Part shown: piece by piece, positions 44,117 to 64,000 of the stretch
Layout: every line of letters starts with the position of its first letter
How positions within the stretch are numbered: the first letter of the stretch is position 1
DNA from: an uncultured Coriobacteriia bacterium
GTDB lineage: Bacteria; Actinomycetota; Coriobacteriia; Coriobacteriales; QAMH01
NCBI GenBank assembly: GCA_948466335.1
Contig: CAOKAE010000001.1
Location: forward strand, 162,664 to 226,663
Length of the DNA stretch: 64,000 nt
Reading direction: 5' to 3'
Position numbers and translations under genes: made by a program
Notes under the pieces: model-generated
What the model was told of the DNA's origin: nothing
Seen by the model: only the letters and a program-made list of their open reading frames with translations
Databases searched by the model: none

Positions 44117-44214
44117 GGGGACAGACCCTCCGCTTCATCCGCCGGCGAAAGAATGGGGACAGACCCTCCAATTGCAGCTTCCGTATCCGCCGGTGAAAGA
44201 ATGGGGACAGACCC
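44117..44214 (+). repeat. REP-like array, 3 forward copies, starting 21 nt after the giant-gene stop
   Basis: Cores at 44117-44128, 44155-44166 and 44203-44214. The 30-nt units 44137-44166 and 44185-44214 (atccgccgg[c/t]gaaagaatGGGGACAGACCC) differ at one base. Confidence 0.9.
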
Positions 44215-45299: not shown

Positions 45300-46097
45300 G
45301 TGCCGCGCCAGCCACGCAGACAATCGTCAACCGGGTATTACCACATCACGAATCGCGGCGTTGGCAAAGCGCGCGTCTTTAGCGACGGCAACGACCACTC
45401 GTTTTTCATAGATTGCCTGCGACTTGCGCAGCGGGTCTGTCACTTCAGGGTTCTCGCATATTGCATAATGACCACGCATTTCCACATCGTCATCAAGTGT
45501 GAGGGCGCCGTTCCAACACCCCTTTTCCAGAGCATAGGAGCACGATTCTCGGCCTATTACCATAAGAGGCACAAATGCTCTGGGCAAATATTCCAGGGTC
45601 GTTTTCGCAGCGAGGCCATCGAGACGGACAGGCACCTTCTCTCTGCGATTCGCTATGTATGGCGCAATCCCGTCAAGGCCCACCTCTGTTCCTACCTGGC
45701 CGCCTATCCGTGGAGTAGCTACAATTGCCTGGGCAAATCGGGTGGCTTGATCGACGACGAGCTCCTTTGCAGCTTCATGAGTGCCGATGAGTGGCGGGCC
45801 TTTGCGTTGCAGGAGACGGACGGCCGTCATCTCGAGCCCTTCCCTCTGCGACTGTCGGACAGTTTCGCTCGGAAACTGGTCCGTGAGGAATGTCGACAGT
45901 TTGGCGATGTGCCGAGGGATGCTCTTGAGAAACCAGAATGCCCTCCTGCACTTGCTATGTGCTTGGATGCGGGGATGACCGTGGCGCAGATTGCCAGAAT
46001 CCTGAACATCGCCGCAACTGGTATGTATCGTGCATTGCGTAAATGGGGTCGGCAGGTTCCGAGGGCATGCACTCTCGAAGCGTCGAGTAGTCCGTAA
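45300..46097 (+). CDS. IS200/IS605-like HUH Y1 transposase of the REP-associated tyrosine transposase (RAYT) type, with a C-terminal HTH extension
   Basis: GTG start 6 nt after AAGGAGG (45287-45293). N-terminus PRQPRRQSSTGYYHITNRG..RVF...DHSFFIDCL. HUH motif in VLAYCIMTTHFHIVIK. GQIFQGRFRSEAIETDRHLL. Catalytic-Tyr motif AIRYVWRNPVKAHL...YPWSSY. C-terminal MTVAQIARILNIAATGMYRALRKWG looks like an HTH. Confidence 0.85.
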   Translation: MPRQPRRQSSTGYYHITNRGVGKARVFSDGNDHSFFIDCLRLAQRVCHFRVLAYCIMTTHFHIVIKCEGAVPTPLFQSIGARFSAYYHKRHKCSGQIFQGRFRSEAIETDRHLLSAIRYVWRNPVKAHLCSYLAAYPWSSYNCLGKSGGLIDDELLCSFMSADEWRAFALQETDGRHLEPFPLRLSDSFARKLVREECRQFGDVPRDALEKPECPPALAMCLDAGMTVAQIARILNIAATGMYRALRKWGRQVPRACTLEASSSP

Positions 46098-46191
46098 TCA
46101 GGCAAACAATCGGGATTGACCGCCCCGTCCCTCGAAAGATTTGGTACTCTGTCGAATAACAAACCAATTAACCTTTCGAGAGGATAATAAA

Positions 46192-47457
46192 ATGCCCCAG
46201 GACATGATAAGCGTCGATGAAGCACGTCAAAGAACGATCGCCCTCGCGAGCGAAGCTCGTTTCAGGACGCCGGTCGAGAAGGCTGACCTATTCGCCGCTG
46301 TCGGACATGTTGCTGCAGCCGACCTTTCGAGCGATATCGACGTCGCTCCATTCGACAATACGGCAATGGACGGTTTTGCCGTGGTCGCGTCCACTCTCGA
46401 GGGTGCCAGTGAGGACAGCCCGGTCGAGCTGGATATCGTCGATTGGGTCGGTGCGGGGGTCGTCAGCCAGGTTGTCCTCAAGCCCGGCGAGGCGATTCGC
46501 ATCATGACGGGCGGTATCATGCCGGAAGGAGCCGATGCCGTTGTCAAGATAGAGGATACGACCTTCACCGGAGACGGTGGTGTGGGCGAGCGTGTCCGCA
46601 TATGCGCTCCCGTGACCAAGACGAACGTGCGCAAGGCGGGCGAAGAGGCCAAAGCGGGTGATGTCATCGTTCGCAAGGGCGAGGTGATTCGCGCCGCGAC
46701 CGTCGGATTGCTCGCAAGCACCGGAAACACGACCATCCCCGTGTATGCCCGTCCCAAAGTCGGCGTCATCAGCATCGGCACCGAGCTCGTCGCGCCTCCG
46801 GCAAAGCCCGAACCGGGAAAGATTCGTGATGCGAATGCGTACGTGTTGGGCGCCTATGCGCTTGATCTCGGATGCGAAGTGAACCTATACCCGATTGTCG
46901 AAGATGACGAGACGGCCATTCGTGCCCTATTCGAGCGGGCGATTGACGAGTGTGACTTCGTCGTTTCGAGCGGCGGGGCGAGCAACGGCGATTTTGATTA
47001 CGCCATCGAGACCGTACGCGAGTTGGGCGAGGTCGTCTTTGACTGCGTGAGCCTGAGGCCGGGCAAGGCCCAGGCGTTCGGTTGCGTGGGCGACACGCTC
47101 GTCGAGGTCCTTTCAGGCAATCCCGCTGCCGCGGCGGTGGGCTTCCAGCTTTTCGGCCGTCCTGCGCTACGCGCCATGCAGGGATTCGTGGAGCTTGACC
47201 GTCCGGTCAGCGACGCCGTTCTTGCGCAGCCGACGCGTAAGAAGGAGCCCCGCGCCTTCTATCAGAGGGGACATCTCGAGGTGGGGGAGGATGGTCAGCT
47301 GCTCGCATGCCAGGAGGAAAAGCAGTCGTCCGCCCTGCTGTCAGAGATGAATCGTAGCACCGTGCTCATCGAGCTTCCGCAAGGCACTGGCACGTTCGAA
47401 GCTGGAACGCCGGTCAAGTGCCTCCACTTGGATATTGACGAGGGCGTTGTTATCTAG
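46192..47457 (+). CDS. moeA: Molybdopterin molybdotransferase MoeA
   Basis: ATG 46192 lies 8 nt after GAGAGGA; the ORF-track start 46141 is a TTG extension. Motifs FDNTAMDGFAV, IRIMTGGIMPEGADAVVKIEDT and SGGASNGDFDY. 421 aa. Confidence 0.9.
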   Translation: MPQDMISVDEARQRTIALASEARFRTPVEKADLFAAVGHVAAADLSSDIDVAPFDNTAMDGFAVVASTLEGASEDSPVELDIVDWVGAGVVSQVVLKPGEAIRIMTGGIMPEGADAVVKIEDTTFTGDGGVGERVRICAPVTKTNVRKAGEEAKAGDVIVRKGEVIRAATVGLLASTGNTTIPVYARPKVGVISIGTELVAPPAKPEPGKIRDANAYVLGAYALDLGCEVNLYPIVEDDETAIRALFERAIDECDFVVSSGGASNGDFDYAIETVRELGEVVFDCVSLRPGKAQAFGCVGDTLVEVLSGNPAAAAVGFQLFGRPALRAMQGFVELDRPVSDAVLAQPTRKKEPRAFYQRGHLEVGEDGQLLACQEEKQSSALLSEMNRSTVLIELPQGTGTFEAGTPVKCLHLDIDEGVVI

Positions 47458-47528: not shown

Positions 47529-47614
47529 GGGGACAGACCCTCTTGTGCCGTACGTAATAATTCGGGGACAGACCCCCGACAATAGGAGGATACCGACAAT
47601 AAGGGGACAGACCC
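47529..47614 (+). repeat. REP-like array, 3 forward copies
   Basis: Cores at 47529-47540, 47564-47575 and 47603-47614. The third has the arm ccgacaataa. Confidence 0.9.
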
Positions 47615-50824: not shown

Positions 50825-50969
50825 GGGGACAGACCCTTCCATACCATCGCAGGCGAAAACCGGGGGACAGACCCCTAACTCCGACTCCGGGGTCCCATTC
50901 GTGACAGCTAGGGGACAGACCCCGCGAACCGATTCCATGAGCCGACCCCGCAAATCGGGGGACAGACCC
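50825..50969 (+). repeat. REP-like array, 4 forward copies
   Basis: Cores at 50825-50836, 50863-50874, 50911-50922 and 50958-50969. Spacings are 38, 48 and 47 nt. Confidence 0.9.
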
Positions 50970-51095: not shown

Positions 51096-51521
51096 TCAGT
51101 CCCTCACTTCGAGGAGCTTGACCCAGTACACGATGTCCTTGCCTGCGAGAGGGTGGTTGAAATCGATGGTGGCCACCTGGTTCTCAACGCTCACCACCTT
51201 TGCCGGAATCGGCTCGATATTGCGCGGGGAGGTCCATCCGATGTACTCGCCAACAGGCAGGTTTTCACCATTGGGAACCTTGTAGGTGGGGAAATGCTGC
51301 ACGGCGCTCTCATCGTATTCGCCGTAGGCGTCGGCTGCGGCGAGCTCGACGGTGCGCTCCTCGCCCGGCTCCATGTCGAGCAAGGCGTCCTCGAGGGCCT
51401 TCATGACCTGACGTCTGCCGAGGACGATCTCGTGGGGCGCGCCTCCGCAGTCATCGAAAACCTCGCCGTCGGGAAAGCTGCCGCGATACAGAAAGCATGC
51501 GGTCTGTCCTTTGTCTGCCAT
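51096..51521 (-). CDS. FKBP-type peptidyl-prolyl cis-trans isomerase (SlyD-like)
   Basis: 141 aa from ATG 51521 (MADKGQTACFLYRGSFPDGEVFDD...EIVLGRRQVMKALEDALLDMEPGEERTVELAAADAYGEYDESAV...IDFNHPLAGKDIVYWVKLLEV). The ORF-track start 51644 is an unlikely extension. Confidence 0.75.
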   Translation of the reverse strand: MADKGQTACFLYRGSFPDGEVFDDCGGAPHEIVLGRRQVMKALEDALLDMEPGEERTVELAAADAYGEYDESAVQHFPTYKVPNGENLPVGEYIGWTSPRNIEPIPAKVVSVENQVATIDFNHPLAGKDIVYWVKLLEVRD

Positions 51522-52079: not shown

Positions 52080-53363
52080 GTGATTCGAAACGTCGATGGT
52101 GATTCCGGCGCAAGCGAAGGTGCGCGGAGGTACCAGAATCCGGTGCTCGTGGGCATCGTCTTGCTCGTATCCGGAATATCGGTGGCGATGATCCAGTACA
52201 AGGTCCCCACCATCATGACGAATCTCATGGGCATCTTCTCGATGGATGCGGCGACAGCCTCGTGGCTCATGTCGGTCTTCACGCTCGTGAGCATCTTCGT
52301 CGCGTTGCCCGCGGGCGCCCTTGCACAGCGTTTTGGCGCCAGGCGGATGCTCGTTGTCGCATGTGGCATCGTCATCCTCGGTTCGCTTGTCGGCCTTGTC
52401 TCCGAAACGAGCCCGATGCTCATCGTTTCGCGGGCGATCGAAGGCGCCGCGCTTACCATCCTCACGACATGCGGGCCGATTATCGTTCAGCAGAACGTGA
52501 GTCCCGAGAAGGTCGGCACCTCGATGGGCATCTGGGGCATCTGGGGATGTCTCGGGTCCACCGTCGCGGCCGTTCTCACGCCGACCGTTTTCGGCATGTG
52601 GGGATTTGACGGCCTCTGGATCGCGTTTGCCGTGGTCAGCGGCGTTGCGGCTGTCCTCGTCCTGGTCTTTATCCGCAAGCCTCCGTCCGCCCCTGCAGCG
52701 CCCGAGGGTCTGTCCCCCGATCGCCATGCGCCCCAGGGGTCGTCTCAGGGGTCTGTCCCCGCAATGTCAGGTGAGGCAACGATTGTCGAGAAGCCTCGCT
52801 ATCGCGACATGTTCTCCAAAGACATGTTCCTGTTCTTCGGGGCCTTCGTTGTCTACAACATCTGCATGCTCGCGATTCTGGCGTTCGTCCCCACGATTCT
52901 GCAGATGCAGGGCTTCGACCCGACGCTCTCGGGCATCATCAGCACGGCGCCCATGTTGCTCTCGATCATATCGTCGCCGCTCTTCGGAGTCGTCTCCGAC
53001 AAGATCGGCCGCAACAAGCCGCTGCTGATCATCGCCATGCTCGTCATGGGTCCCTGCACGTTTTTGCTCTACACGCAGACCGGGCCGTTGCTCTGGGTGG
53101 GCGTCTTCGCGATGGGACTGCTCGGCATGGGCGGCATCGGCCAGTATCTCTCGGGATTCACGAAGCTGCTGCCGAGTCCCGACCTCGCGTCGGTGGGCAT
53201 GGGAGTGCTCGTCACGTTTCAGGGCGTCGGTCAGTTCCTCGGCACGTTTTTCGTGCAGATGCTTCTGGGGCCGCAGCTGACCGAATGGTGGTTTGCCGGC
53301 ATGGTGCTCATGCTTCTCGGCTTCGTCGGCACGGCGCTCATCGCCCTGTGCAAGCTACGGTGA
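52080..53363 (+). CDS. MFS transporter
   Basis: GTG 52080 follows AGGAGGA. 427 aa with about 12 hydrophobic helices in two halves. MFS loop motif ALPAGALAQRFGARRM between helices 2 and 3. Confidence 0.85.
   Translation: MIRNVDGDSGASEGARRYQNPVLVGIVLLVSGISVAMIQYKVPTIMTNLMGIFSMDAATASWLMSVFTLVSIFVALPAGALAQRFGARRMLVVACGIVILGSLVGLVSETSPMLIVSRAIEGAALTILTTCGPIIVQQNVSPEKVGTSMGIWGIWGCLGSTVAAVLTPTVFGMWGFDGLWIAFAVVSGVAAVLVLVFIRKPPSAPAAPEGLSPDRHAPQGSSQGSVPAMSGEATIVEKPRYRDMFSKDMFLFFGAFVVYNICMLAILAFVPTILQMQGFDPTLSGIISTAPMLLSIISSPLFGVVSDKIGRNKPLLIIAMLVMGPCTFLLYTQTGPLLWVGVFAMGLLGMGGIGQYLSGFTKLLPSPDLASVGMGVLVTFQGVGQFLGTFFVQMLLGPQLTEWWFAGMVLMLLGFVGTALIALCKLR
52706..52760 (-). repeat. REP-like doublet (reverse) translated inside the MFS central loop
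   Basis: GGGTCTGTCCCC at 52706-52717 (read as GLSP) and 52749-52760 (read as GSVP). The reverse complement carries the arm ctgacattgc. Confidence 0.9.
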
Positions 53364-53369
53364 CAATGC

Positions 53370-53416
53370 GGGGACAGACCCCTGGCTGTCCGGACTGACA
53401 ATGAGGGGACAGACCC
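53370..53416 (+). repeat. REP-like doublet (forward) immediately after the MFS stop
   Basis: Cores at 53370-53381 (arm gtgacaatgc) and 53405-53416 (arm ctgacaatga). Confidence 0.9.
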
Positions 53417-53720: not shown

Positions 53721-55241
53721 ATGGGGGAAGTAGTACCAGAGCGGGAAGCCGAACAAACCGCGGAGCGCAAGCCAATCGGCGGCAACGAGGCAGATTTCGA
53801 GGCCGTCCTCATCGACGGCATACTCGGCTTCAGCCTTTCTCTCGGCAACGCCATCCTATTGCTGGTCGGGGCGGTGACGCATGCCGGCTCCTTCTTCGAC
53901 TCCGCGGTCATCACCGTTATCGCCGCTCTTGTGTCCGCGGCCTTCTTCAAGATCGTCCAGCTCAAGACCGATGCAATCTCCCGGCGCCTTCCGCGTGTCG
54001 CCTTCGTATGCGGTCATGCGGTGTGCTTCCTCGTCGCCATCGTCGGCATGTACCTGGGGCTCCAGTACCTTATCGCCGTGGCCGCGGCGCTTGGCCTGGC
54101 TGACACCCTCATCCTCTACGGGCGATTTCTCGCGGCACTCGCCCGCAAGGCCCTCATGCTCGTCGTGGATGCGGCCTTTCTGTACCCTGGCATCATGCTG
54201 ATGGTCATAGTCAACGTGCCGTGGCCCTATGACACGGTCATTCTCTCGGCCATGGTGCTCGTCACGATCGTCGTCGCCCTTCTCTTCATCCGGCGAAACT
54301 ACGACTTCGGAGAACTCATCAGTGCCGCCGATTCGAAGGCGCGCAGCATCAAGGCCAAAGGCAATGTCCATACGCTCTTCCTCGTCGGCTTCATGATCAG
54401 TGCGTTTCTGCTCTTCAACTCGCTGCCGTTTACCCTGGAAATATCGAACACCGCGCTGGGCCTGGCCTTTGCGCTTGCGGGTATCGGATCGCTGCTCATG
54501 CGCCAGATCAACGAACGCGGCACGAAAGATGCGATGCGCAAGACCACGGGACTCGCCTCCCTCGTCTTGCTCCTGCCGCTCATGCTCGTTCCCGGCGAGA
54601 TACAGCTCGTGCTGCTCGCGTGCTATAGCTGCTATGTCGTTCTCGAGACGCTGACCATACTCGACGCGATCGTCGAGACCGTCCGCTTCAACCTCATCGC
54701 GGCCATGTGGCTCATCGGTAAGGAATGCTCGGTATTCTTTGGCGGCATAGCTGCGGGTGGAGCGATATTTGCGCTGTTTCCCTGGATCGCCCGCGTGCTA
54801 GGTCCCGAATACGCCATGCTCATCCTGTGCATCGTGGTGGCCGCGTTTTGCGCGTGGCTGCAGATAAAGGTCAACTACCAGGTCTACCCCTATGAGCCCA
54901 TCATCGAGGAGGAGGTTGACGAGGAGGTGACCGCGCGCATCGAGCGCAACGGTCGTCGCAAGGACCTCTGGCATCAGAAGATTGATGCCGCCTGCGAGCA
55001 ATATCGCCTGTCACCTCGCGAACGCGAGATATTGCCCATCCTGCTGAGGGGCCGCGACGCCAAGTACATCATGGACACCTTCTACATCTCGCAATCCACG
55101 GCCAAGACGCACATATATAACATCTACCGCAAGTTCGGCATCCATTCGCGCCAGGAGCTTCTCGACTTCGTCGAGGACATCGAGTTCATGGAGCTTGAGA
55201 TGCCCGATGAAGCGGAGCGCCCAGACGATTCCGCGCAATAG
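53721..55241 (+). CDS. LuxR-family transcriptional regulator with an N-terminal multi-pass membrane domain
   Basis: ATG 53721 follows AAGGGGG. About 8-10 hydrophobic helices, then a C-terminal GerE/LuxR HTH (LSPREREILPILLRGRDAKYIMDTFYISQSTAKTHIYNIYRKFGIHSRQELLDFV). The ORF-track extension from 53442 is Cys-rich and unlike a protein. Confidence 0.8.
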   Translation: MGEVVPEREAEQTAERKPIGGNEADFEAVLIDGILGFSLSLGNAILLLVGAVTHAGSFFDSAVITVIAALVSAAFFKIVQLKTDAISRRLPRVAFVCGHAVCFLVAIVGMYLGLQYLIAVAAALGLADTLILYGRFLAALARKALMLVVDAAFLYPGIMLMVIVNVPWPYDTVILSAMVLVTIVVALLFIRRNYDFGELISAADSKARSIKAKGNVHTLFLVGFMISAFLLFNSLPFTLEISNTALGLAFALAGIGSLLMRQINERGTKDAMRKTTGLASLVLLLPLMLVPGEIQLVLLACYSCYVVLETLTILDAIVETVRFNLIAAMWLIGKECSVFFGGIAAGGAIFALFPWIARVLGPEYAMLILCIVVAAFCAWLQIKVNYQVYPYEPIIEEEVDEEVTARIERNGRRKDLWHQKIDAACEQYRLSPREREILPILLRGRDAKYIMDTFYISQSTAKTHIYNIYRKFGIHSRQELLDFVEDIEFMELEMPDEAERPDDSAQ

Positions 55242-55242
55242 G

Positions 55243-55391
55243 GGGTCTGTCCCCTTATTTTTCCCTTCGCATTTCCCCCGGCTGACAATCAGGGGACAGA
55301 CCCTCACGCATCATGCTGACAGTCGGGGGACAGACCCCGTCGTGTCCCGTCGTGTCGACATGCCCGCGTTTGACAGCCGGGGGACAGACCC
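55243..55391. repeat. REP-like cluster: 1 reverse copy then 3 forward copies
   Basis: Reverse copy at 55243-55254, 2 nt after the luxR-type stop. Forward copies at 55292-55303 (arm ctgacaatca), 55326-55337 (ctgacagtcg) and 55380-55391 (ttgacagccg). Confidence 0.9.
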
Positions 55392-55735
55392 TCGCCCGTC
55401 ATCCGCCCCCGCCCCCGCTCCCCAGCCTTCGCGTTTCAGGATGAGCGCGACGACCAGAGGGGCTGAACGCGCCCCGGCGCTTCCGAAACGGCCACCCGCG
55501 GACCCTCATATCTGAGGTTCCATGCTCTGAGCAGGGCATTCGAAACCCACTCACAAAATTTCCACATTTGCGGCCAATTCTCGACTCCGAATAATCCCCG
55601 GACAATGAAACCCAAGGACACGTGCGCCCGCGCGCACGCGCCCCATCCCCGGGTTGTGCGGCCCGGGGCCGCCGACGCTCTGGAGAGGACGTCGGTTGGG
55701 GAGGGAATGTGATATTCGATGAAAGAGGAGGAGTT

Positions 55736-56974
55736 ATGTCTGATAAAGCACTGGACAAGTCCAAGTGTATAGACGGAAGCTACGGCTGGGTAGTCGTGCT
55801 GTTCACCATGTTGGTCGGCTTCGTGCCCGGTTCCAACATGGCGAAGGCGATTTCGCTCGCGCCAATCGTCTGCATGAACTTCCAGATCAACGAGGCCACG
55901 TTCGGCCTGATCGTCGCGTCTTTCTACATCATGGGCTTCATCATGGCGTTCCCCACCACGGGCCTCGTCAACAAGCTCGGCATGAAGGGCTCCGTCGCCA
56001 TCGCCGTCGGCTGCGGCATCGTCGGTTCCATCATGGGTGCCATGGCCGGCACCAACCTCACGGTCTTCGTCATCAGCCGCGTCGTCGAGGGCGCGTCCTT
56101 CGGCATCATGGGCGTCGTGGGCGCATCGTCCATCGGCCCGTGGTTCTCGCCCAAGAAGCGCTCGCTCCCGTTGTCCATCTGGTCCATGTGGGTCGCCGTC
56201 TGCATGTGCGTCTGCCCGATTCTCTTTGGCTGGCTCAACGAGTCAATGGGCGTTGACATGGCGGGCATTTGGTGGGGCACCGCCGTGTACGACCTGGTCG
56301 TCGGCGTCTTGTTCATCCTGTTCTACCGTCGCCCGGCCGACCTCGACGCCGTCGAGAACGCCGAGGATCCCACCGGCACCAAGAAGGCGAGCATCTCGCG
56401 CGCCCTCAAGAGCCCGATGCTCTGGGCACTCGCCCTCATCTTCCTGTTCGACGAGGCCGCCTTCATGGCCATCAACGGCTTCATCGTCCAGTACCTCACC
56501 ACGCAGCTCGATGCGTCGCTCGTCCTGGCAAACGCCATCTTCTCGCTGTTCGGCCTCATGGGTGCCCTGACGCCGCCCATCTCCGGCTGGATCACGCAGA
56601 AGTGGAACAACCACCGCTGGGTGCTACTCGTCGGCCTGTTTATCGCGGTCATCTACACCGCCCTGGTCTTCCAGCTCCAGAACCCGATGCTGTACTACCC
56701 GCTGTCCATCCTCGCCGGCATCGTCGGTGGCGCCGTTCCGTCCATCATCTGGCAGTTCACGCCCAACACCGTTGAGGACGCCGATATCCCGGCGGCCAAC
56801 GCCTTCATGGCGTTCACCCAGAACATCGGCATGACCATCGGCGCCCTCATCATCGGCAACGCCATCGTCATGTGGGGTTGGAGCATGGGTTCGCTCATTG
56901 GCATGGTGCCGCTGTACATCATCTGTCTCATCATCTACTTCGCCTTCGGCGTTCAGAAGAAGCTCAAGCTCTAG
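55736..56974 (+). CDS. MFS transporter
   Basis: ATG 55736 follows AGAGGAGGAG. 412 aa with about 12 hydrophobic helices. The ORF-track start 55622 is an Arg/Gly-rich extension. Confidence 0.8.
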   Translation: MSDKALDKSKCIDGSYGWVVVLFTMLVGFVPGSNMAKAISLAPIVCMNFQINEATFGLIVASFYIMGFIMAFPTTGLVNKLGMKGSVAIAVGCGIVGSIMGAMAGTNLTVFVISRVVEGASFGIMGVVGASSIGPWFSPKKRSLPLSIWSMWVAVCMCVCPILFGWLNESMGVDMAGIWWGTAVYDLVVGVLFILFYRRPADLDAVENAEDPTGTKKASISRALKSPMLWALALIFLFDEAAFMAINGFIVQYLTTQLDASLVLANAIFSLFGLMGALTPPISGWITQKWNNHRWVLLVGLFIAVIYTALVFQLQNPMLYYPLSILAGIVGGAVPSIIWQFTPNTVEDADIPAANAFMAFTQNIGMTIGALIIGNAIVMWGWSMGSLIGMVPLYIICLIIYFAFGVQKKLKL

Positions 56975-57354
56975 TCGCTTCGCGTACGGGGGATGCGTCG
57001 TCTTTCATGGCGGCGCATCCTCGCGCGCGTTCTTTTGCCCTTTGCGCGACGTGAAAGGGGACCTGAAAGTCGTCGTGTAAACCCCAAGTTCACAGGCGCT
57101 TTTCCCTGTGCCGTCAGACGCGAGGTACGAGGATATTTCGCGAGGGGTCCACGATTTCCGCACCTGTGTACGATTCTCAACTCGCGCACCTGAGCCCTAG
57201 TTTGTACGTGCCGCAATCCCTCGGCGGCACCGAAATGTCTCGAGTTCGTATTCCTCGAGTTGACATGAGCATCCGGCTCAATGGGACGTCTTCCTCGCAC
57301 AACGGCATGGCGCCGCGGAAGAGCGCCCCGGCTCTTTTGAAAGGAGAGGCGCGT

Positions 57355-57561
57355 ATGTGTTTTAGACCCGCAAGTTTCGAGTCCGAAGGTGACAACCCCT
57401 ATTTCGTTCCCAGCGATCCCGAGGACGCCGCTGCTCCCGGAGCACCGAGCGCACCTGGAGCCCCTGGCGCTCCCGGCGCACCTGTAGCTCCCGGCGCACC
57501 TGCCGCACCGGGCGCCCCCGCTGCTCCCGGCGCCCCGTCCGCACCGGGCCAGCCGTCCTAA
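57355..57561 (+). CDS. Small protein (68 aa) with seven APGAPx hexapeptide repeats (hypothetical)
   Basis: ATG 57355 lies 6 nt after AAGGAGAG (57341-57348). It translates to MCFRPASFESEGDNPYFVPSDPEDAA-APGAPS-APGAPG-APGAPV-APGAPA-APGAPA-APGAPS-APGQPS-stop. It ends 108 nt before the molybdoenzyme start. Confidence 0.45.
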   Translation: MCFRPASFESEGDNPYFVPSDPEDAAAPGAPSAPGAPGAPGAPVAPGAPAAPGAPAAPGAPSAPGQPS

Positions 57562-57669
57562 AGCCAAGGCAAGGTACCGGTTCGCGCCGGCGGGAGTGTC
57601 CTTGCCAGACGACTGGATCACGAACGCAAAGTGCAATGCAGGTTGAGAGAGAAGAGGAAAGGAAAGAGC

Positions 57670-60009
57670 ATGAAGATTTTCAAAGGTCAGGGCACTGCCG
57701 ATCTTGGCAAGCCATGGCGCTTCGAAGAAGACGGCCTCACCGTCACCCGTGGTTGTGCATGGTCGCCTCCGGGGTGCCATCCCACCGGATGCGGCATCAA
57801 GACCTATGTGAATTCCGCTGGCGAGCTCGTGCGCGTCGAAGGTGACGAGAACCATCCCATCACCAACGGCCGCCTCTGCGTCCGCTGCCTGACCATTCGC
57901 GATTACGTCTACAACCCCGACCGCGTGCTCTATCCCATGAAGCGCGCCCGCGAGGACCGCGGCAAGAACAAGTGGGAGCGCATCACCTGGGACGAGGCCT
58001 ACGACACCATCGCCGAGAAGGTCAAGTACTTCAAGGACAAGTACGGCGCCGAGTCCATCCTGGTCATGGGTGGTACCGGTCGCGAGGGTGGCCCCATGCT
58101 TCCGGCCTACGCCCATGCATGCCTGGGTACTCCCAACGCCTGCTACACGCAGTCTGGCTACTCCTGCTACATCCCGCGCGTCGCGGGTACCACCTACGTC
58201 ATGGGCGCCACCTATCCCGAGATGGACTACGCGGGCGGCCTGCCCGGACGCTATGACGACCCGATGTTCAAGCTTCCCGAGCTCATCGTGTTCTGGGGCA
58301 AGGAGCCCCTGCCGTCCAACGGTGACGGCCTGTTCGGTCATGCCGCCATCGACATGATGCGCCGCGGAAGCAAGCTCATGTCCATCGACCCGCGCGTCAA
58401 CTGGGTATCGACCCGTGCCGACTGGCACCTGCGCCTGCGCCCCGGCACCGACGCCGCCCTCGGCATGGCCATGCTCAACGTGATCATCGAGGAGGACCTC
58501 TACGATCACGACTTCGTCGACAAGTGGTGCTACGGCTTCGACCAGCTCGCCGAGCGCGTCAAGACCATGCCCGCCGAGAAGGCCGCCGAGATTTGCGGTC
58601 TCGACGCCGGCGAGATCCGCGAGGCCGCCCGCGTCTACGCCGCGGCCAAGCCCGCCCAGATTGCCTGGGGTCTGGCCATCGACCAGAAGTCCAACGGCGT
58701 CCAGGCCGGTCACTGCATCATGGCCCTCGAGGCCATCACGGGCAACATCGACGTGCCCGGTGGTCAGCTCATCGGTGACGTCAACGACGGTCTTGAGCTC
58801 GGCTTTGGCTGGAACAACCTCGGCCCGGAGCTCCAGAGCAAGATCCTCGGCATCAAGGAGTACCCGGCCTACGTCGGCCTCGTCCTCAACGCGCAGTGCG
58901 ACATGGTGCTCGACGCGCTCGAGGCGGGCGACGACGCCAAGTACTACCCGTTCAAGATGGGCGTCTTCGAGGACACGAACTTCCTGGCTGGCACCTGCGC
59001 CGCCCAGCCCAAGCGCTGGCATGACGCCATGGTCAAGAACCTCGAGTGGTGCTTCGGCATCGACGTGTGGATGACCCCGACGATCCAGGCTACCTGCGAG
59101 ATCTTCCTCCCGCTGTCCTCGACCGTCGAGCATGACACCGTCGTGTACACGCACTACGGCGCATCTCCGATCATGGCCGGCGCCGTCAACAAGTCCATCA
59201 CCGTGGGCGATTGCAAAGGCGACTGCGAGATCTTCTACGAGCTCGGCCTGCGCTGCATGCCCATCAACTTCGAGAAGTACAAGGACTACTACGACTTCCT
59301 GGCCGACTATCGCCTCGCCTACAAGAGGACCTTCGAGGAGCTGCGCGAGGAGGTCGTGCACCAGAAGACCGAGATGTGCGGCTACTACAAGTACGAGTCC
59401 GGCCGCCTGCGTCCCGACGGCATGCCCGGCTTCAACACGCCCACCGGCCGCGTCGAGCTCTACTCGACGATGTTCCGCCAGTTCGGCGAGGATCCGCTGC
59501 CGTACTACGAGGAGCCGCAGTTCTCGCCGGTCTCCACGCCCGACAAGATGGAGGAGTATCCCTTCGTCCTCACCACGGGTGCCCGCACCTACTGCTACTT
59601 CCATTCGGAGGGAAAGCAGATCCCGTACCTGCGCGAGATGAATCCCGATCCGCTGATCGAGATCAATCCCGAGGACGCCCTCAAGCACGGCATCGCCGAC
59701 GGCCAGTGGGTCGAGGTCGCCAGCCCCTTTGGCAAGTGCGTCCTGAAGGCCAAGGCCTCCCAGATTGTGAAGCCGGGCGTCGTGCACGCACAGCACGGCT
59801 TCTGGTTCCCCGAGAAGGATCCCGAGGAGCCCAGCCTGTACGAGGTGTGGCGTTCCAACATCAACGAGCTCATCCCTCACTTCATGGTGGGCAAGCTCGG
59901 ATTCGGCGCGCCGTTCAAGTGCCTCATCTGCAGCGTGAAGCCGGTGTCGGAGAACTACGACACCGACATGATGGAGGTTTGGGACCACTTCGGAAAGTTG
60001 GTGATCTAG
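57670..60009 (+). CDS. Molybdopterin (bis-MGD) oxidoreductase, acetylene-hydratase-like / catechol-dehydroxylase-like branch, no Tat signal
   Basis: ATG 57670 follows a purine-rich RBS. 779 aa. N-terminal Fe-S Cys cluster GCAWSPPGCHPTGCG...GRLCVRC. MopB-type core (ILVMGGTGREGG, IDPRVNW, LRPGTDAAL). C-terminal TPTGRVELYS..F...GEDPLPYYEEP...EYPFVLTTGAR...NPDPLIEINPEDA. No twin-arginine leader. Confidence 0.85.
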   Translation: MKIFKGQGTADLGKPWRFEEDGLTVTRGCAWSPPGCHPTGCGIKTYVNSAGELVRVEGDENHPITNGRLCVRCLTIRDYVYNPDRVLYPMKRAREDRGKNKWERITWDEAYDTIAEKVKYFKDKYGAESILVMGGTGREGGPMLPAYAHACLGTPNACYTQSGYSCYIPRVAGTTYVMGATYPEMDYAGGLPGRYDDPMFKLPELIVFWGKEPLPSNGDGLFGHAAIDMMRRGSKLMSIDPRVNWVSTRADWHLRLRPGTDAALGMAMLNVIIEEDLYDHDFVDKWCYGFDQLAERVKTMPAEKAAEICGLDAGEIREAARVYAAAKPAQIAWGLAIDQKSNGVQAGHCIMALEAITGNIDVPGGQLIGDVNDGLELGFGWNNLGPELQSKILGIKEYPAYVGLVLNAQCDMVLDALEAGDDAKYYPFKMGVFEDTNFLAGTCAAQPKRWHDAMVKNLEWCFGIDVWMTPTIQATCEIFLPLSSTVEHDTVVYTHYGASPIMAGAVNKSITVGDCKGDCEIFYELGLRCMPINFEKYKDYYDFLADYRLAYKRTFEELREEVVHQKTEMCGYYKYESGRLRPDGMPGFNTPTGRVELYSTMFRQFGEDPLPYYEEPQFSPVSTPDKMEEYPFVLTTGARTYCYFHSEGKQIPYLREMNPDPLIEINPEDALKHGIADGQWVEVASPFGKCVLKAKASQIVKPGVVHAQHGFWFPEKDPEEPSLYEVWRSNINELIPHFMVGKLGFGAPFKCLICSVKPVSENYDTDMMEVWDHFGKLVI

Positions 60010-60357
60010 ATGACGGCCTACGGTCTGCTTATCGATTACGAGTTCTGCACGGGCTGCCAGTCTTGCGAGGTCGCGTGCAAGGAGATTCACAACATCCCCG
60101 TGGGGCAGTGGGGCATCCGCGTGCTTGACGATGGTCCCTGGGAGTGCTCGGACGGCAAGTTCAACTGGAACAAGATTCCGACCCCGACCCGCCTGTGCGA
60201 CCTGTGCGTGGAGCGCACGGACAAGGGCCAGCAGCCCTTCTGCGTGCATCACTGCCTGGCCGGCGTCATGCAGTGGGGCACGGTCGAGGACCTTGCCAAG
60301 GAGCTCGAGGAGAAGCCCAACCAGGTGCTCTTCGTGCCCAAGCCCTACCAGTACTAG
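60010..60357 (+). CDS. Small 4Fe-4S cluster protein (electron-transfer subunit)
   Basis: The ATG abuts the upstream TAG. 115 aa with CTGCQSCEVACK and CDLCVERTDKGQQPFCVHHC Cys motifs. Confidence 0.75.
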   Translation: MTAYGLLIDYEFCTGCQSCEVACKEIHNIPVGQWGIRVLDDGPWECSDGKFNWNKIPTPTRLCDLCVERTDKGQQPFCVHHCLAGVMQWGTVEDLAKELEEKPNQVLFVPKPYQY

Positions 60358-60399
60358 CGGGAAGACGGCGTCTCGACCGAGGCGCGCGGGTGATAGGCG

Positions 60400-60521
60400 G
60401 GGGACAGACCCTCACGCATCACGAACGTCGCGGTTGGCAAGAAGGGGACAGACCCTTTCGTAAGAAGGCGGGGGACAGACCCCTTCGCGCCAACCGCAGG
60501 TGAGAAAGAGGGGACAGACCC
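60400..60521 (+). repeat. REP-like array, 4 forward copies between the Fe-S and chaperone genes
   Basis: Cores at 60400-60411, 60444-60455, 60471-60482 and 60510-60521. The 22-mer gataggcgggggacagaccctc (60392-60413) is identical to 44109-44130. The 22-mer ggggacagaccctcacgcatca (60400-60421) is identical to 55292-55313. Confidence 0.9.
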
Positions 60522-60560
60522 CCACGCGTCATCCGCGAAGCGAGCGAGGACGGAATTTCG

Positions 60561-61268
60561 ATGGACCAGCAGGCTCTGATGCAGCAAACCGAAGACAGGT
60601 GCGACAACTACGCGATGCTCTCGCGCCTGTTCAGAAGCGAGCTCGATCGCGAGCTCATCGCCGATCTCGTCGAAAGTCCGGCCGCTGAGCCGACGGGCAA
60701 CACGCTCTTCGACTCGGGCTACGCACGCCTGCGTTCGTACCTTGACGCCGTCGACGATCTCGATCGTGCCAAGTCGGCGCTTGCGATTGACTACTGCCTC
60801 GCGTTCCTCGGCTACGGGGTCGACCCCGAGAAGGCGGACGAGGCCGGCAGGAATGCCGCCTATCCGTACGAGTCGATCTACCGCACGGGCGCCAAGTCTC
60901 TCGGCGGCGACCACTGCGCCGAGGTCTCCGACGTGTTCCGCTCCTGCATGTTCATGCCCACCCGCGACCGCCTCATCGCCGAGGACCACATCGCGTGCGA
61001 GCTCGAGTTCATGCAGTTCATGGCCAACAGCGAGCTCGTCGCCCTGCGCGATGGCGAGCTTGCGGCCGTGCGTGGCACGCAGAAGAAGGAACTCGAGTTC
61101 CTGGAGGGCCATATGCTCGCGTGGACGGAGAGCTTCAGGCAGGCGGTGGAGCAGTTCGCCGAGACGGACTTCTACATCGGTCTGCTCGAAATGACGCAGG
61201 GTTGGCTCGAACTGGACGCGGAATACCTGCGCGAGGCATGCGCGGGCGAGGGGGAGGATGCATCATGA
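60561..61268 (+). CDS. TorD/DmsD-family redox-enzyme maturation chaperone
   Basis: 235 aa, helical. N-terminus YAMLSRLFRSELD, then AAYPYESIYRTG (a YESVY-like motif of the family). It lies next to molybdoenzyme genes. Confidence 0.7.
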   Translation: MDQQALMQQTEDRCDNYAMLSRLFRSELDRELIADLVESPAAEPTGNTLFDSGYARLRSYLDAVDDLDRAKSALAIDYCLAFLGYGVDPEKADEAGRNAAYPYESIYRTGAKSLGGDHCAEVSDVFRSCMFMPTRDRLIAEDHIACELEFMQFMANSELVALRDGELAAVRGTQKKELEFLEGHMLAWTESFRQAVEQFAETDFYIGLLEMTQGWLELDAEYLREACAGEGEDAS

Positions 61269-61585
61269 CGACCGACCACGGCCCGGACGGGCGCAACTGG
61301 AACAAGAACGAGGTTGAGTATGACCTCGGCGTCGCCGGCCCCGGCCAGAGCATCGTCATAACCATCACCCGTTCCGTCGCGGTCAAGATCATGGACCACG
61401 ACAGCTACGAGCTCTACAAGGCGGGCGAGGACTGCAAGGCCTTCTCGGGCCAGCTCACCTCGTCGCCGTACCGGTTCAAGCTGCCGCGCGAGGCACGATG
61501 GCACGTGATCATCAATCCCCACACCTATTCGGGCACCGCCGAATTCAGCGTTCGTCTCATCGACGACGAGGTGCTCGACGGCTAG
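61265..61585 (+). CDS. DUF1883-like small protein
   Basis: ATGA overlap with the chaperone stop. 106 aa. YDLGVAGPGQSIVITITRSVAVKIMDHDSYELYKAGEDCKAFSG...SPYRFKLPREARWHVIINPH..SGTAEFSVRLI matches my recollection of the DUF1883 pattern (YDLG...V.V.L...A.V.LMD..N...Y..G....Y.GG...SP..L.IP..G.WHVV.D). Confidence 0.55.
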   Translation: MTTDHGPDGRNWNKNEVEYDLGVAGPGQSIVITITRSVAVKIMDHDSYELYKAGEDCKAFSGQLTSSPYRFKLPREARWHVIINPHTYSGTAEFSVRLIDDEVLDG

Positions 61586-61595
61586 GGGGAAATCG

Positions 61596-61680
61596 GGGGA
61601 CAGACCCTCGATTGCCGTCGGTGACAAAGAGGGGACAGACCCCCATCGACCACCGCCGGTGACAAGTGGGGGACAGACCC
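61596..61680 (+). repeat. REP-like array, 3 forward copies between the DUF1883-like gene and the second molybdoenzyme
   Basis: Cores at 61596-61607, 61631-61642 (arm gtgacaaaga) and 61669-61680 (arm gtgacaagtg). Confidence 0.9.
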
Positions 61681-61757
61681 CCGGTTCGCAATTTGGTTCG
61701 TACGGCGCGGCCACGAGGAAAGGCCGGGCCGTTAAGAAGGAGAAGGAGAGTGAAGCA

Positions 61758-64000
61758 ATGGAGTTAAGTGATTACAAGCCAGCTCCAGTAGTGAAGCTGG
61801 ACAGCCTTTCCGACGTCAACGACATCGGAAAGCCCTGGCGCTACGAGGACGGCGACTACACCGTCACCCGCACCTGCCCGTGGTCACCCCCGGGATGCCA
61901 TCCGGTCGGCTGCGGCCTCAAGCTCTACGTCAACGAGGACGGTAGACTCGAGCACGTCGAGGGCGATGAGAACCATCCCGTCACCCAGGGCCGCCTGTGC
62001 CCGAGGTGCATCACGCTGAAGGACTACGTCTACAGCCCCGCCCGCATCCTCACCCCGATGAAGCGCGACCGTTCCGAGCGCGGCAACGCCGACGCCTGGG
62101 AGGAGTGCTCCTGGGACGAGGCATTCGCCATCATCAAGGAGAACTACGAGCGCATCGTCGCCGAGTATGGCCCCGAGACCATCATCGGCATGTCCGGTAC
62201 CGGTCGTGAGGGCGGCACCATGTCGCTGTATCCCACGATGGTCTTCGGCACGCCCAACTACTGCTACATGCAGTCCGGCTACGCCTGCTACACCCCGCGT
62301 CTCGCGGCGGCCGCCTACATCACCGGGTCCACCTATTCCGAGTGGGACTACGCCGGTGCTCTGCCCGACCGCTGGGATGACGAGCGTTACACCCTGACCG
62401 AGGTCCTGGTCATGTGGGGCAAGGCTCCGCTCGAGTCCAACCCCGACGGCTTCTTCGGCCATGCGGTCGTCGACGCCATGCGTCGCGGCACGCGCCTCAT
62501 CCAGATCGACCCGCGCGTCAACTGGCTGTCCGCTCGCGCCGACATCTTCATCCAGCTGCGTGCCGGCACGGACACCGCTCTCGCGATGGCCATGCTCGAC
62601 ATCATCATCAAGGAAGACCTCTACGACCACGAGTTCGTCGAGTACTGGTGCTACGGCTTCGAGCAGCTTGCCGAGCGCGTCGCCACGATGCCCGCCGAGA
62701 AGGCCGCCGAGATCTGCCAGGTTCCCGTCGAGAAGATCTACGCCGCGGCTCGCATGTACGCGAAGGCCAAGCCGGCTGCCATCATGTGGGGCCTCGCCGT
62801 TGACCAGAAGACCGACGGCATGCAGAACAGCCAGTGCATCATCGCGCTGCAGGCCATCACCGGCAACTTCGACCGTCCGGGCGGCCAGCTCGTTCCCGGC
62901 GCCGACGCCGGCCACAACGAGCTCGGCTTCGGCTACAAAGAGTGCATCCCCGATGAGCTCTTCCAGAAGATGATCGGCATGGACCAGTACCCCGCGTACT
63001 GCAACATGATCCTCAACTCGCAGTGCGACCTCATGCTCGAGGCCCTCGAGACCGAGAAGCCCTATCCCATCCGCATGGGCTTCTACATGGCCTCCAACCC
63101 GCTGTCGAACACCTCCATGGAGCCGAAGCGCTGGCATGACGCCCTGTGCAAGTCCCTCGAGTTCTGCATCGGCATCGACCTGTTCATGAACGCCTCCATC
63201 CAGGCCACCTGCGACATCTTCCTGCCGATCGCGACCACCGCCGAGCGCGAGGGCACCGTGTTCACGCACTACGCGCCCTGCACCGTCACGGCTGGCTTCA
63301 TGCACAAGGCCGTCGACTGCGGCGGTCTGCCTTCCGACATGGAGCTCGCCTATCGTCTGGGCAAGTACCTGCATCCGGAGCGCTTCTCCAAGTGGGCCAA
63401 CGAGCACGAGCTCGTCGAGGCCTTCCGCCTTGGCGTCGAGAACGGCGGCAAGACCTTTGATGAGGTCTCCAAGTGCGTCGTCGCCCAGGTGCCCATCGAG
63501 TACTACAAGTACGAGAAGGGCTTGCTGCGCCAGGACGGCCAGGTTGGCTTCGCCACCCCGACGGGCCGTGTCGAGCTGTGGTCGACCGCCTACAACCAGT
63601 TCGGCGAGGATCCGCTGCCGTATTACATCGAGCCCGAGTTCAGCCCGGTTTCCAAGCCGGAGCTCGTCGACGAGTATCCGCTCATCCTCACGACCGGTGC
63701 TCGCGTTACCGCGTTCTTCCACTCCGAGAATCGCCAGATTCCCTACACGCGCGAGCTCAACCCCGATCCGCTGCTCGAGATCAACCCCAAGACCGCGCAG
63801 GAGAAGGGCATCGCCGATGGCCAGTGGGTGCGCGTCTGGAACATGTTCGGCGAGGCTCTCATGAAGGCCAAGGTCACGGATGCCGTGGACGAGAAGACCG
63901 TCCATGGTCAGCACGGCTGGTGGTTCCCCGAGCAGGACGGCAGCGAGCCGAACCTCTACGGCACCTTCCGTTCGCAGATCAACAACCTGTGCCCCAACGG
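61758..64000 (+). CDS. Second molybdopterin (bis-MGD) oxidoreductase paralog, 3' end outside window
   Basis: ATG 61758 follows AAGGAGAAGGAGAG. My hand translation gives MELSDYKPAPVVKLDSLSDVNDIGKPWRYEDGDYTVTRTCPWSPPGCHPVGCGLKLYVNEDGRLEHVEGDENHP at the start and ...VHGQHGWWFPEQDGSEPNLYGTFRSQINNLCPN at the window end. Both stretches parallel the 57670 gene. No stop occurs in this frame, which explains its absence from the ORF track. Confidence 0.85.
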   Translation, partial: MELSDYKPAPVVKLDSLSDVNDIGKPWRYEDGDYTVTRTCPWSPPGCHPVGCGLKLYVNEDGRLEHVEGDENHPVTQGRLCPRCITLKDYVYSPARILTPMKRDRSERGNADAWEECSWDEAFAIIKENYERIVAEYGPETIIGMSGTGREGGTMSLYPTMVFGTPNYCYMQSGYACYTPRLAAAAYITGSTYSEWDYAGALPDRWDDERYTLTEVLVMWGKAPLESNPDGFFGHAVVDAMRRGTRLIQIDPRVNWLSARADIFIQLRAGTDTALAMAMLDIIIKEDLYDHEFVEYWCYGFEQLAERVATMPAEKAAEICQVPVEKIYAAARMYAKAKPAAIMWGLAVDQKTDGMQNSQCIIALQAITGNFDRPGGQLVPGADAGHNELGFGYKECIPDELFQKMIGMDQYPAYCNMILNSQCDLMLEALETEKPYPIRMGFYMASNPLSNTSMEPKRWHDALCKSLEFCIGIDLFMNASIQATCDIFLPIATTAEREGTVFTHYAPCTVTAGFMHKAVDCGGLPSDMELAYRLGKYLHPERFSKWANEHELVEAFRLGVENGGKTFDEVSKCVVAQVPIEYYKYEKGLLRQDGQVGFATPTGRVELWSTAYNQFGEDPLPYYIEPEFSPVSKPELVDEYPLILTTGARVTAFFHSENRQIPYTRELNPDPLLEINPKTAQEKGIADGQWVRVWNMFGEALMKAKVTDAVDEKTVHGQHGWWFPEQDGSEPNLYGTFRSQINNLCPN

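Follow-up and report, generated by a model that had tools for sequence, protein, structure and literature searches.

A conserved orphan locus with two predicted Gordonibacter-type catechol dehydroxylases in an uncultured Coriobacteriia bacterium

The window analyzed here, a 64,000-nucleotide stretch of DNA from an uncultured human-gut Coriobacteriia bacterium (contig CAOKAE010000001.1, positions 162,664 to 226,663, of assembly GCA_948466335.1), ends in a cluster coding for a LuxR-type regulator, transporters of the MFS superfamily and two paralogous catalytic subunits, Mo1 and Mo2, of the bis-MGD (bis-molybdopterin guanine dinucleotide) enzyme superfamily. Judging from sequence comparisons, we consider it highly probable that this locus is a substrate-inducible cluster for two cytoplasmic, two-subunit molybdenum catechol dehydroxylases of the Gordonibacter type. 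Catechol dehydroxylases, which strip hydroxyl groups from dietary polyphenols, govern what polyphenol metabolites the host receives; the majority are still to be assigned a substrate. While the finding leaves the knowledge of the enzyme class itself unchanged, its value lies in a conserved and experimentally tractable orphan module, along with accessory genes that have so far gone unremarked.

As shown by Maini Rekdal et al. (PMC7028382), catechol dehydroxylases group in a clade adjacent to acetylene hydratase, with more than 30% identity to a characterized member serving as the criterion for the family (PMC7028382, PMC11585353). The Gordonibacter enzymes carry no Tat (twin-arginine translocation) signal, are smaller than those of Eggerthella, have a small 4Fe-4S partner and an adjacent MFS gene, and are probably soluble (PMC7028382). 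The window enzymes conform to this description: they are members of the bis-MGD superfamily with acetylene hydratase as their nearest solved relative, exceed 30% identity to characterized dehydroxylases, are Tat-less and predicted to be soluble, have an Fe-S subunit gene downstream and are already catalogued among dehydroxylase homologues.

Gene content and the catalytic subunits

The genes of the locus that lie in the window are the following, with coordinates counted from its first base:

51096..51521, - strand: FKBP-type peptidyl-prolyl isomerase, SlyD/SlpA-like, 141 aa, divergent from MFS-A (Pfam FKBP_C, E 1e-12)
52080..53363, + strand: MFS transporter A (MFS-A), 427 aa (Pfam MFS_1, E 6e-46)
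53721..55241, + strand: LuxR-type regulator, 506 aa (GerE at residues 430-483, Pfam E 2e-12)
55736..56974, + strand: MFS transporter B (MFS-B), 412 aa (Pfam MFS_1, E 9e-42)
57355..57561, + strand: small unannotated gene, 68 aa (open reading frame, Shine-Dalgarno-like sequence and third-position bias)
57670..60009, + strand: Mo1, bis-MGD catalytic subunit, 779 aa (Pfam Molybdop_Fe4S4, Molybdopterin, Molydop_binding)
60010..60357, + strand: FeS1, small electron-transfer subunit, 115 aa (Pfam Fer4_11, Fer4_2)
60561..61268, + strand: molybdoenzyme maturation chaperone of the TorD/NarJ family, 235 aa (Pfam Nitrate_red_del, E 4e-18; NCBIfam TorD, E 9e-22, below cut-off)
61265..61585, + strand: DUF1883 protein, 106 aa (Pfam DUF1883, E 6e-15)
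61758..64000, + strand: Mo2, bis-MGD catalytic subunit, 747 of 788 aa visible, cut by the window end (same three Pfam domains as Mo1)

All the elements that the initial annotation had listed from the bare sequence are present, each of them on the + strand: the LuxR regulator with its multi-pass membrane domain, an MFS transporter (MFS-B, to which MFS-A can now be added), two paralogous bis-MGD oxidoreductases (55.6% identical to each other), the 115-aa Fe-S partner and a TorD-like chaperone. Since MFS-A and the divergent FKBP gene belong to the module conserved across genera, it begins 5′ of position 53721, the first base of the regulator gene. The start codon of FeS1 begins at the base right after the Mo1 stop codon, the DUF1883 start overlaps the chaperone stop codon (ATGA), and the DUF1883 and chaperone genes co-occur in several loci. 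The FKBP and DUF1883 open reading frames are called genes in public assemblies. A promoter scan yielded sigma-70-like sites no more often than expected by chance; hence, operon boundaries were inferred from gene spacing alone.

A phmmer search of all solved structures recovered the acetylene hydratase of Pelobacter acetylenicus (2e7z) as the best PDB match of both catalytic subunits over nearly their full length (E 2e-83 for Mo1 and 8e-81 for Mo2), as anticipated by the initial placement of their C-terminal regions in the acetylene-hydratase-like branch. The next match, FdhF (E 6e-46 for Mo1 and 3e-51 for Mo2), is weaker by about 30-37 orders of magnitude, and no catechol dehydroxylase occurs among the PDB sequence matches of either protein. 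Acetylene hydratase is a single-subunit tungsten enzyme with the usual C-x2-C-x3-C spacing of its N-terminal cluster cysteines. It catalyzes a non-redox hydration, whereas the window enzymes each have their own Fe-S partner and differ in the x6/x4 spacing of their first cysteines. In Mo1, the N-terminal [4Fe-4S] motif takes the form C29-x6-C36-x4-C41-x28-C70 within CxWSPPGCHPxGCG, with identical spacing in Mo2; the unusual spacing read from the sequence at the outset is thus exact in both. In the printed alignment, C41 and C70 of Mo1 pair with two [4Fe-4S] cysteines of acetylene hydratase, and the cysteine of the Mo1 SGYSC motif falls opposite the cysteine that ligates the metal in that enzyme.

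Among 138 homologues from the fetched loci (numbered below with the prefix L), the C-x6-C-x4-C form marks the subclade with Mo1 and Mo2, while many other homologues show serine, threonine or alanine at the first cysteine position together with x3 spacing. Two characterized enzymes differ from the window enzymes, which keep all four cysteines in the x6/x4 arrangement: the motif of Dodh is Ser-x6-C-x3-C, and Gp Hcdh, as given in Table S1 of PMC11585353, has lost all four N-terminal cluster cysteines while keeping the xWSPPGxHPxGxG scaffold (TWSPPGSHPVGYG...GRVNAMN). Because Gp Hcdh is without all four cysteines and Dodh has serine at the first position, the N-terminal [4Fe-4S] site appears to be dispensable or remodelled in parts of the family. 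Across the homologues compared, the unusual cysteine motif is a clade trait and no novelty of this locus.

The initial annotation had named two kinds of observation that would be at odds with it, namely a place among respiratory or formate enzymes and a Tat signal from an alternative upstream start. Neither the N-termini of Mo1 and Mo2 nor the upstream in-frame sequence back to the previous stop contains a twin-arginine motif. Likewise, none of the NCBIfam models for formate dehydrogenase or for nitrate, dimethyl sulfoxide (DMSO), trimethylamine N-oxide, thiosulfate and arsenate reductases reaches its cut-off for either enzyme, the best of them scoring 250-264 bits, where the model of the formate dehydrogenase alpha subunit demands 666. 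The picture of soluble enzymes is further upheld by the lack of any hydrophobic segment in Mo1, Mo2 or FeS1 and of any membrane-anchor-like gene in the cluster. The catalytic subunit genes also have no in-frame stop usable as a selenocysteine codon.

FeS1 has nine cysteines in the pattern CxxCxxCxxxC...CxxCx11CxxxC (listed positions 13, 16, 19, 23, 63, 66, 78 and 82), and what it matches in DmsB and FdhB-type subunits is their first and their last cluster motif. It is predicted to bind two [4Fe-4S] clusters. The regulator combines about 11-13 hydrophobic segments at residues 29-382 (a crude Kyte-Doolittle count made with no dedicated predictor) with a C-terminal GerE domain. LuxR proteins with 10-12 transmembrane (TM) segments that are encoded beside catechol dehydroxylase genes are the substrate-specific activators of those genes (Dong et al., PMC9734109). 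The window regulator has the architecture of DadR, HcdR and CadR described in that work, with a multi-pass N-terminal membrane domain followed by a GerE/LuxR helix-turn-helix, and its gene adjoins enzyme genes just as those for the 10-12-TM proteins adjoin the metabolic genes that they regulate. The C-terminal GerE domain, the hydropathy peaks and the adjacent enzyme genes together place it with these proteins, in keeping with the pairing of membrane LuxR and dehydroxylase genes that the initial annotation had pointed out.

Relationship to characterized dehydroxylases and competing explanations

Mo1 shares 49.1% identity with the first 390 aa of Gp Hcdh, 43.5% with the first 377 aa of Dodh and 41.6% with full-length Cldh/(-)-Eddh; the comparison covered these three characterized enzymes. 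Gp Hcdh, which shares the xWSPPGxHPxGxG segment, is the closest characterized enzyme among those compared. In the similarity network of the family, shared function requires at least 72% identity, and 121 of the 126 clusters were without a known function when the network was built (PMC11585353). Table S1 of that study (Bae et al. 2024) lists sequences near-identical to those of the window, all from its own species-level bin (SGB 14770), placing Mo1 in cluster 8, together with its G. pamelaeae orthologue GPA_34460, and Mo2 in cluster 13. The characterized enzymes Dadh, El Hcdh, Gp Hcdh, Dodh, Cldh and Cadh populate clusters 5, 2, 9, 22, 27 and 37. By cluster as well as by identity (42-49% against 72%), the window enzymes thus lie outside the known isofunctional groups. 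Literature searches with GPA_34460, GPA_34480, UniProt identifiers and accessions found no paper. In a family studied intensively since 2019, Mo1 and Mo2 are by these comparisons an orphan pair: their sequences are already catalogued and their network clusters are uncharacterized.

In organization, the closest parallel is with the Gordonibacter-type systems (PMC7028382, PMC11585353, PMC11887054, PMC12771579), which share with the window locus a Tat-less catalytic subunit of about 770-790 aa, an Fe-S subunit gene directly downstream, the lack of an anchor, adjacent MFS genes and acetylene hydratase as the nearest solved relative. A membrane LuxR protein is found at most of the characterized members too, and paired paralogues recur in the Eadh1/2 and (+)-Eldh1/2 clusters. 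The window enzymes differ from these systems in being only 42-49% identical to the three alignable members and in occupying separate network clusters, 8 and 13. The window locus also adds the TorD-like chaperone, the DUF1883 protein, the FKBP flanks and the small proline-rich gene, which go unmentioned for Gordonibacter-type clusters in the literature searched. The Eggerthella-type systems (Dadh, El Hcdh and Cadh) belong to the same superfamily with the same proposed chemistry, and likewise feature substrate-specific induction via 12-TM LuxR proteins and a TorD-like accessory chaperone (PMC11887054). However, they are larger and bear a Tat signal, and three-subunit complexes anchored in the membrane are predicted for them, in contrast to the Tat-less, anchorless and predictedly cytoplasmic enzymes of the window. 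Hence, of the kinship to Eggerthella and Gordonibacter dehydroxylases initially proposed, the Gordonibacter side holds as the closest, while the exported and anchored Dadh, Hcdh and Cadh of Eggerthella represent a different type.

By analogy with these relatives, we posit that a diet-derived catecholic compound might enter the cell via one or both of the MFS transporters encoded here. It would be sensed by the multi-pass domain of the LuxR protein, the helix-turn-helix of which might then activate the enzyme promoters, as do DadR, HcdR and CadR, whose architecture it shares. Each catalytic subunit, which has the requisite domains and ligand residues, would bind molybdenum in a bis-MGD cofactor, together with one N-terminal [4Fe-4S] cluster, would receive electrons via its own small subunit with two [4Fe-4S] clusters and, if it acts like its characterized relatives, would remove one catechol hydroxyl as water. 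The likeliest division of labor is that Mo1 and Mo2 each attack a different position, intermediate or enantiomer within a single family of compounds, which is the pattern of Eadh1/Eadh2 on urolithins and of (+)-Eldh1/(+)-Eldh2 on dihydroxyenterolactone. From their conserved position, the TorD-like chaperone, the DUF1883 protein, the FKBP isomerases and the small proline-rich protein are probably maturation or accessory factors.

Several observations pull against the dehydroxylase reading or parts of it. Its support comes from homology at 42-49% identity to characterized enzymes, and the closest solved relative of the family is a non-redox hydratase. A neighbor-joining tree of the 138 catalytic subunits resolves the Mo1 and Mo2 orthologue groups; nevertheless, it misplaces Gp Hcdh and Dodh, both represented by partial sequences, at the root, a missing-data artefact on account of which pairwise identities were used in its place. 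Syntenic LuxR orthologues are just 40-51% identical across genera as against 70-94% for the enzymes, and because the regulator is so much less conserved, different lineages may respond to different inducers. Lastly, in about 65 human stool metatranscriptomes, transcripts of cluster 8 were found in 3 and those of cluster 13 in 6, at a low level and never in the same sample; these counts, which are near the detection limit, offer no support for tight co-regulation. Since the two metagenome samples examined both contain the genes while transcripts are so rare, the pattern fits silent genes awaiting an uncommon inducer.

It is very unlikely that Mo1 and Mo2 are isofunctional orthologues of a characterized dehydroxylase acting on hydrocaffeic acid, dihydroxyphenylacetic acid, catechol lignans, dihydroxyenterolactone, dihydroxyphenylvaleric acid or urolithins M5/M6. 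The kinship to Gp Hcdh noted above would favor such an identity, and the layout, with two dehydroxylases, two MFS genes, a LuxR gene and an extra, Eadh3-like paralogue in Ellagibacter, recalls the eam cluster that converts ellagic acid to urolithins (PMC12771579), which made the latter a suspect. In that study, orthology to eam is defined by more than 80% identity to Eadh1/Eadh2; here the locus was judged by accessions and gene content. The orthologues of the window enzymes in Gordonibacter sp. 28C (WP_114600179.1 and WP_114600177.1) carry accessions other than those of Eadh1 and Eadh2 (WP_114602618.1 and WP_114601864.1), and no Eah-type decarboxylase or amidohydrolase gene shows up in the gene calls for the locus and its extension; on these grounds, we rejected the eam reading. 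Published primers, designed for cloning or qPCR of (+)-Eldh1/2, (-)-Eddh/cldh, Gs Vadh, Gp hcdh and Eadh3, were also mapped on all fetched loci. A few single primers matched homologues in other metagenome-assembled genomes (MAGs), and only those for (-)-Eddh/cldh map to a Gordonibacter locus (L014, strain 28C), where they hit another gene, located 3 kb downstream of the cluster. The primer-encoded N-termini of (+)-Eldh1, (+)-Eldh2, (-)-Eddh and Gs Vadh (Dong et al., PMC11887054) match neither Mo1 nor Mo2, eliminating these enzymes as candidates, while Dodh, Cldh/(-)-Eddh and Gp Hcdh are eliminated by their identities and network clusters.

There is somewhat more room, though still little, for enzymes of the acetylene-hydratase-like clade with another chemistry, for example ones that hydrate their substrate or that reduce some small molecule, aromatic or otherwise, other than a catechol. 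The hydratase as nearest solved structure and the large majority of network clusters with no known function leave space for this, as does the caution of the original authors that not every homologue need be a true dehydroxylase (PMC7028382). However, each enzyme has a dedicated subunit with two [4Fe-4S] motifs, that of Mo1 being encoded immediately after its stop codon, which points to redox chemistry. Moreover, all the characterized Gordonibacter-type members (Dodh, Cldh/(-)-Eddh, Gp Hcdh, Gs Vadh, (+)-Eldh1/2 and Eadh1/2/3) are regioselective catechol dehydroxylases, and the regulator and transporter context is the same as at characterized dehydroxylase genes. Conventional respiratory or formate-linked bis-MGD enzymes, such as formate dehydrogenase or DMSO, thiosulfate or nitrate reductases, have hardly any claim, despite the formate dehydrogenase alpha subunit and DmsA/YnfE families being the top NCBIfam matches by E-value and a close relative bearing the JGI label "anaerobic selenocysteine-containing dehydrogenase". 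These matches fall far below the curated cut-offs, and the PDB matches to FdhF, PhsA and DMSO reductase are at least 30 orders of magnitude weaker than that to acetylene hydratase. The locus has no Tat signal, anchor subunit or candidate selenocysteine stop, and its Fe-S partner shows two cluster motifs as against the four of DmsB/FdhB-type subunits.

Conservation of the module, accessory genes and the substrate question

A scan covering one genome per species showed that the gene order MFS-LuxR-MFS-Mo-FeS-Mo-FeS is kept in Gordonibacter pamelaeae and Gordonibacter sp. 28C, as well as in Ellagibacter, Adlercreutzia sp. and MAGs from animal guts, ruminant and termite ones among them, with identities of 84-94% for Mo1 and 70-92% for Mo2. 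The orthologues are 87% (Mo1) and 85% (Mo2) identical in the two Gordonibacter genomes, 89% for both in an Ellagibacter MAG, and 91% and 86% in Adlercreutzia sp. Marseille-QA1605; Mo1 reaches 92-94% in goat and buffalo MAGs and 84-86% in several MAGs labelled just Coriobacteriales or Actinomycetes. A near-identical Mo1 sequence is present on 310 public contigs. Both transporters are syntenic, MFS-A at 56-97% identity in more than 12 loci and MFS-B at 50-99%. The module does vary at its margins: the chaperone gene is present in the window species, Ellagibacter, Adlercreutzia sp. and the goat MAG and absent at that position in Gordonibacter, while the Ellagibacter MAG has an additional catalytic paralogue adjoining the cluster. 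The distance between the orthologous cluster and cldh/(-)-eddh is 3 kb in Gordonibacter sp. 28C, which fits the remark that 11 uncharacterized dehydroxylase genes are located near (-)-eddh in G. pamelaeae DSM 19378 (PMC11887054).

Two FKBP-type isomerase genes bound the module in almost every genus. The left one recurs at the same place and pointing the same way, with 58-98% identity, across Gordonibacter, Ellagibacter, Adlercreutzia sp. and the ruminant and termite MAGs; the second (FKBP2) lies beyond the window in its species, at L077 17224-17652 (+). We also observed FKBP genes following related Mo/Fe-S gene pairs at loci L016, L020, L022 and L026. Because it flanks the module in nearly every genus and also follows such related pairs, we suggest that the SlyD/SlpA-like FKBP is a conserved folding or maturation helper. 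FKBP genes receive no mention in the catechol dehydroxylase literature searched.

The 695-bp gap 5′ of Mo1 holds the small 68-codon gene (57355-57561), which is uncalled in public assemblies. Its product begins with a conserved MCFRPAS stretch, contains an NPYFVP motif and ends in an (Ala-Pro-Gly)n tail, the last encoded by an 18/27-bp tandem repeat at 57436-57536, and GGAGAGG lies 6 nt 5′ of the ATG. In comparison with a sister species, the changes within the gene mostly affect third codon positions, whereas the DNA on either side has diverged freely; going by this substitution pattern, it is translated and under purifying selection. Members of the family usually add a CPxCG...CPxCG zinc ribbon, a segment deleted in the window species. 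Homologues (for example at L004 9620-9904, L014 18237-18028 and L080 4001-4225) are found beside dehydroxylase genes in 26 of 76 loci, two of them from Firmicutes, and four of five independently sampled relatives adjoin genes for molybdopterin, Fe-S and MFS proteins. About 400 relatives exist in public data, named just "zinc ribbon domain-containing" or "hypothetical", and the catechol dehydroxylase literature searched makes no mention of this small zinc-ribbon/proline-rich protein. Along with FKBP and DUF1883, it could bear on the maturation of enzymes that are hard to express.

The locus continues past position 64000, as seen in loci L077 and L012 of the window's species, with the remainder of Mo2, FeS2, FKBP2 and a small cysteine-rich open reading frame; L077 displays full-length Mo2 (788 aa) followed by FeS2 (163 aa). 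Further along this extension (L077 17665-22340 and L012 425-11201), the small cysteine-rich frame (MCYPCTNCGRCG...) after FKBP2 is succeeded by a further two catalytic paralogues (identity to Mo1 82% and 69%) and a third Fe-S subunit. Next come a pair of Fe-S flavoenzymes of the FadH/OYE type, relatives of BaiCD and bilirubin reductase, and finally a short-chain dehydrogenase. Together with the module, this extension looks like a larger polyphenol or xenobiotic reduction island.

As for the substrate, the best NCBIfam subfamily match of MFS-A is TIGR00893 (D-galactonate transporter), at E 3e-21 and far below cut-off, and the transporters show a faint match to the NCBIfam 4-hydroxybenzoate transporter model. 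From the TIGR00893 match and the closeness to Gp Hcdh, which acts on a phenylpropionic acid, we would venture a carboxylated phenolic compound as a weak guess. That relatives from ruminant and termite guts have the module too suggests a shared substrate of plant origin. More ambitiously, Mo1, Mo2 and the two downstream paralogues might form a multi-step pathway for a diet- or plant-derived polyhydroxylated aromatic without a known dehydroxylase (bis-catechol or carboxylated phenolic compounds being candidates), conserved from the human gut to ruminant and termite relatives, with the small MCFRP protein and the paired FKBP proteins as dedicated accessory factors in maturation, regulation or transporter coupling. 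We offer this combined proposal tentatively and think it rather doubtful as a whole. A search for the substrate is feasible with published methods, since orthologues exist in the culturable strains G. pamelaeae DSM 19378 and Gordonibacter sp. 28C and expression tools are available for the related G. urolithinfaciens.

Neighboring features of the window

About 6 kb 5′ of the cluster lies moeA (46141-47457; MoeA_N, MoCF_biosynth and MoeA_C domains), separated from the FKBP gene by a DUF2510 gene and trigger factor. The initial annotation was right about the gene but had counted it with the cluster; we see nothing that ties it to the enzymes, and it is probably merely a neighbor.

The 5′ part of the window is taken up by an uninterrupted open reading frame of 14,697 codons (3-44096, + strand), which runs off the 5′ end and has a G+C content at third codon positions of 0.89. 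Sampled segments of it contain DUF285, BspA-type leucine-rich repeats and Listeria-Bacteroides (Flg_new) repeat domains; accordingly, the product looks like a surface or adhesin-like protein.

A 12-mer, GGGGACAGACCC, which forms a small GGGG-ACAGA-CCCC hairpin, occurs in 48 copies (against 0.6 expected) between 31565 and 61680. Nearly all intergenic gaps hold an array of 2-4 direct copies with a spacing of about 27-54 bp, as in the following examples:

44117-44214
47529-47614
50825-50969
53370-53416
55243-55391
60400-60521
61596-61680

Sixteen copies sit within the 3′ third of the giant open reading frame, and two in the central loop of MFS-A (52706-52760), where they are read in frame. The 12-mer is abundant just in loci of the window species and nearly absent from a sister species with a 98% identical Mo1; thus, it looks like a recently expanded, species-specific short repeat element. 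Between the giant open reading frame and moeA, an open reading frame at 45300-46097 (+ strand) matches an IS200-like transposase (Y1_Tnp) and a resolvase helix-turn-helix weakly, with scores below threshold, and may be the remnant of a mobile element.

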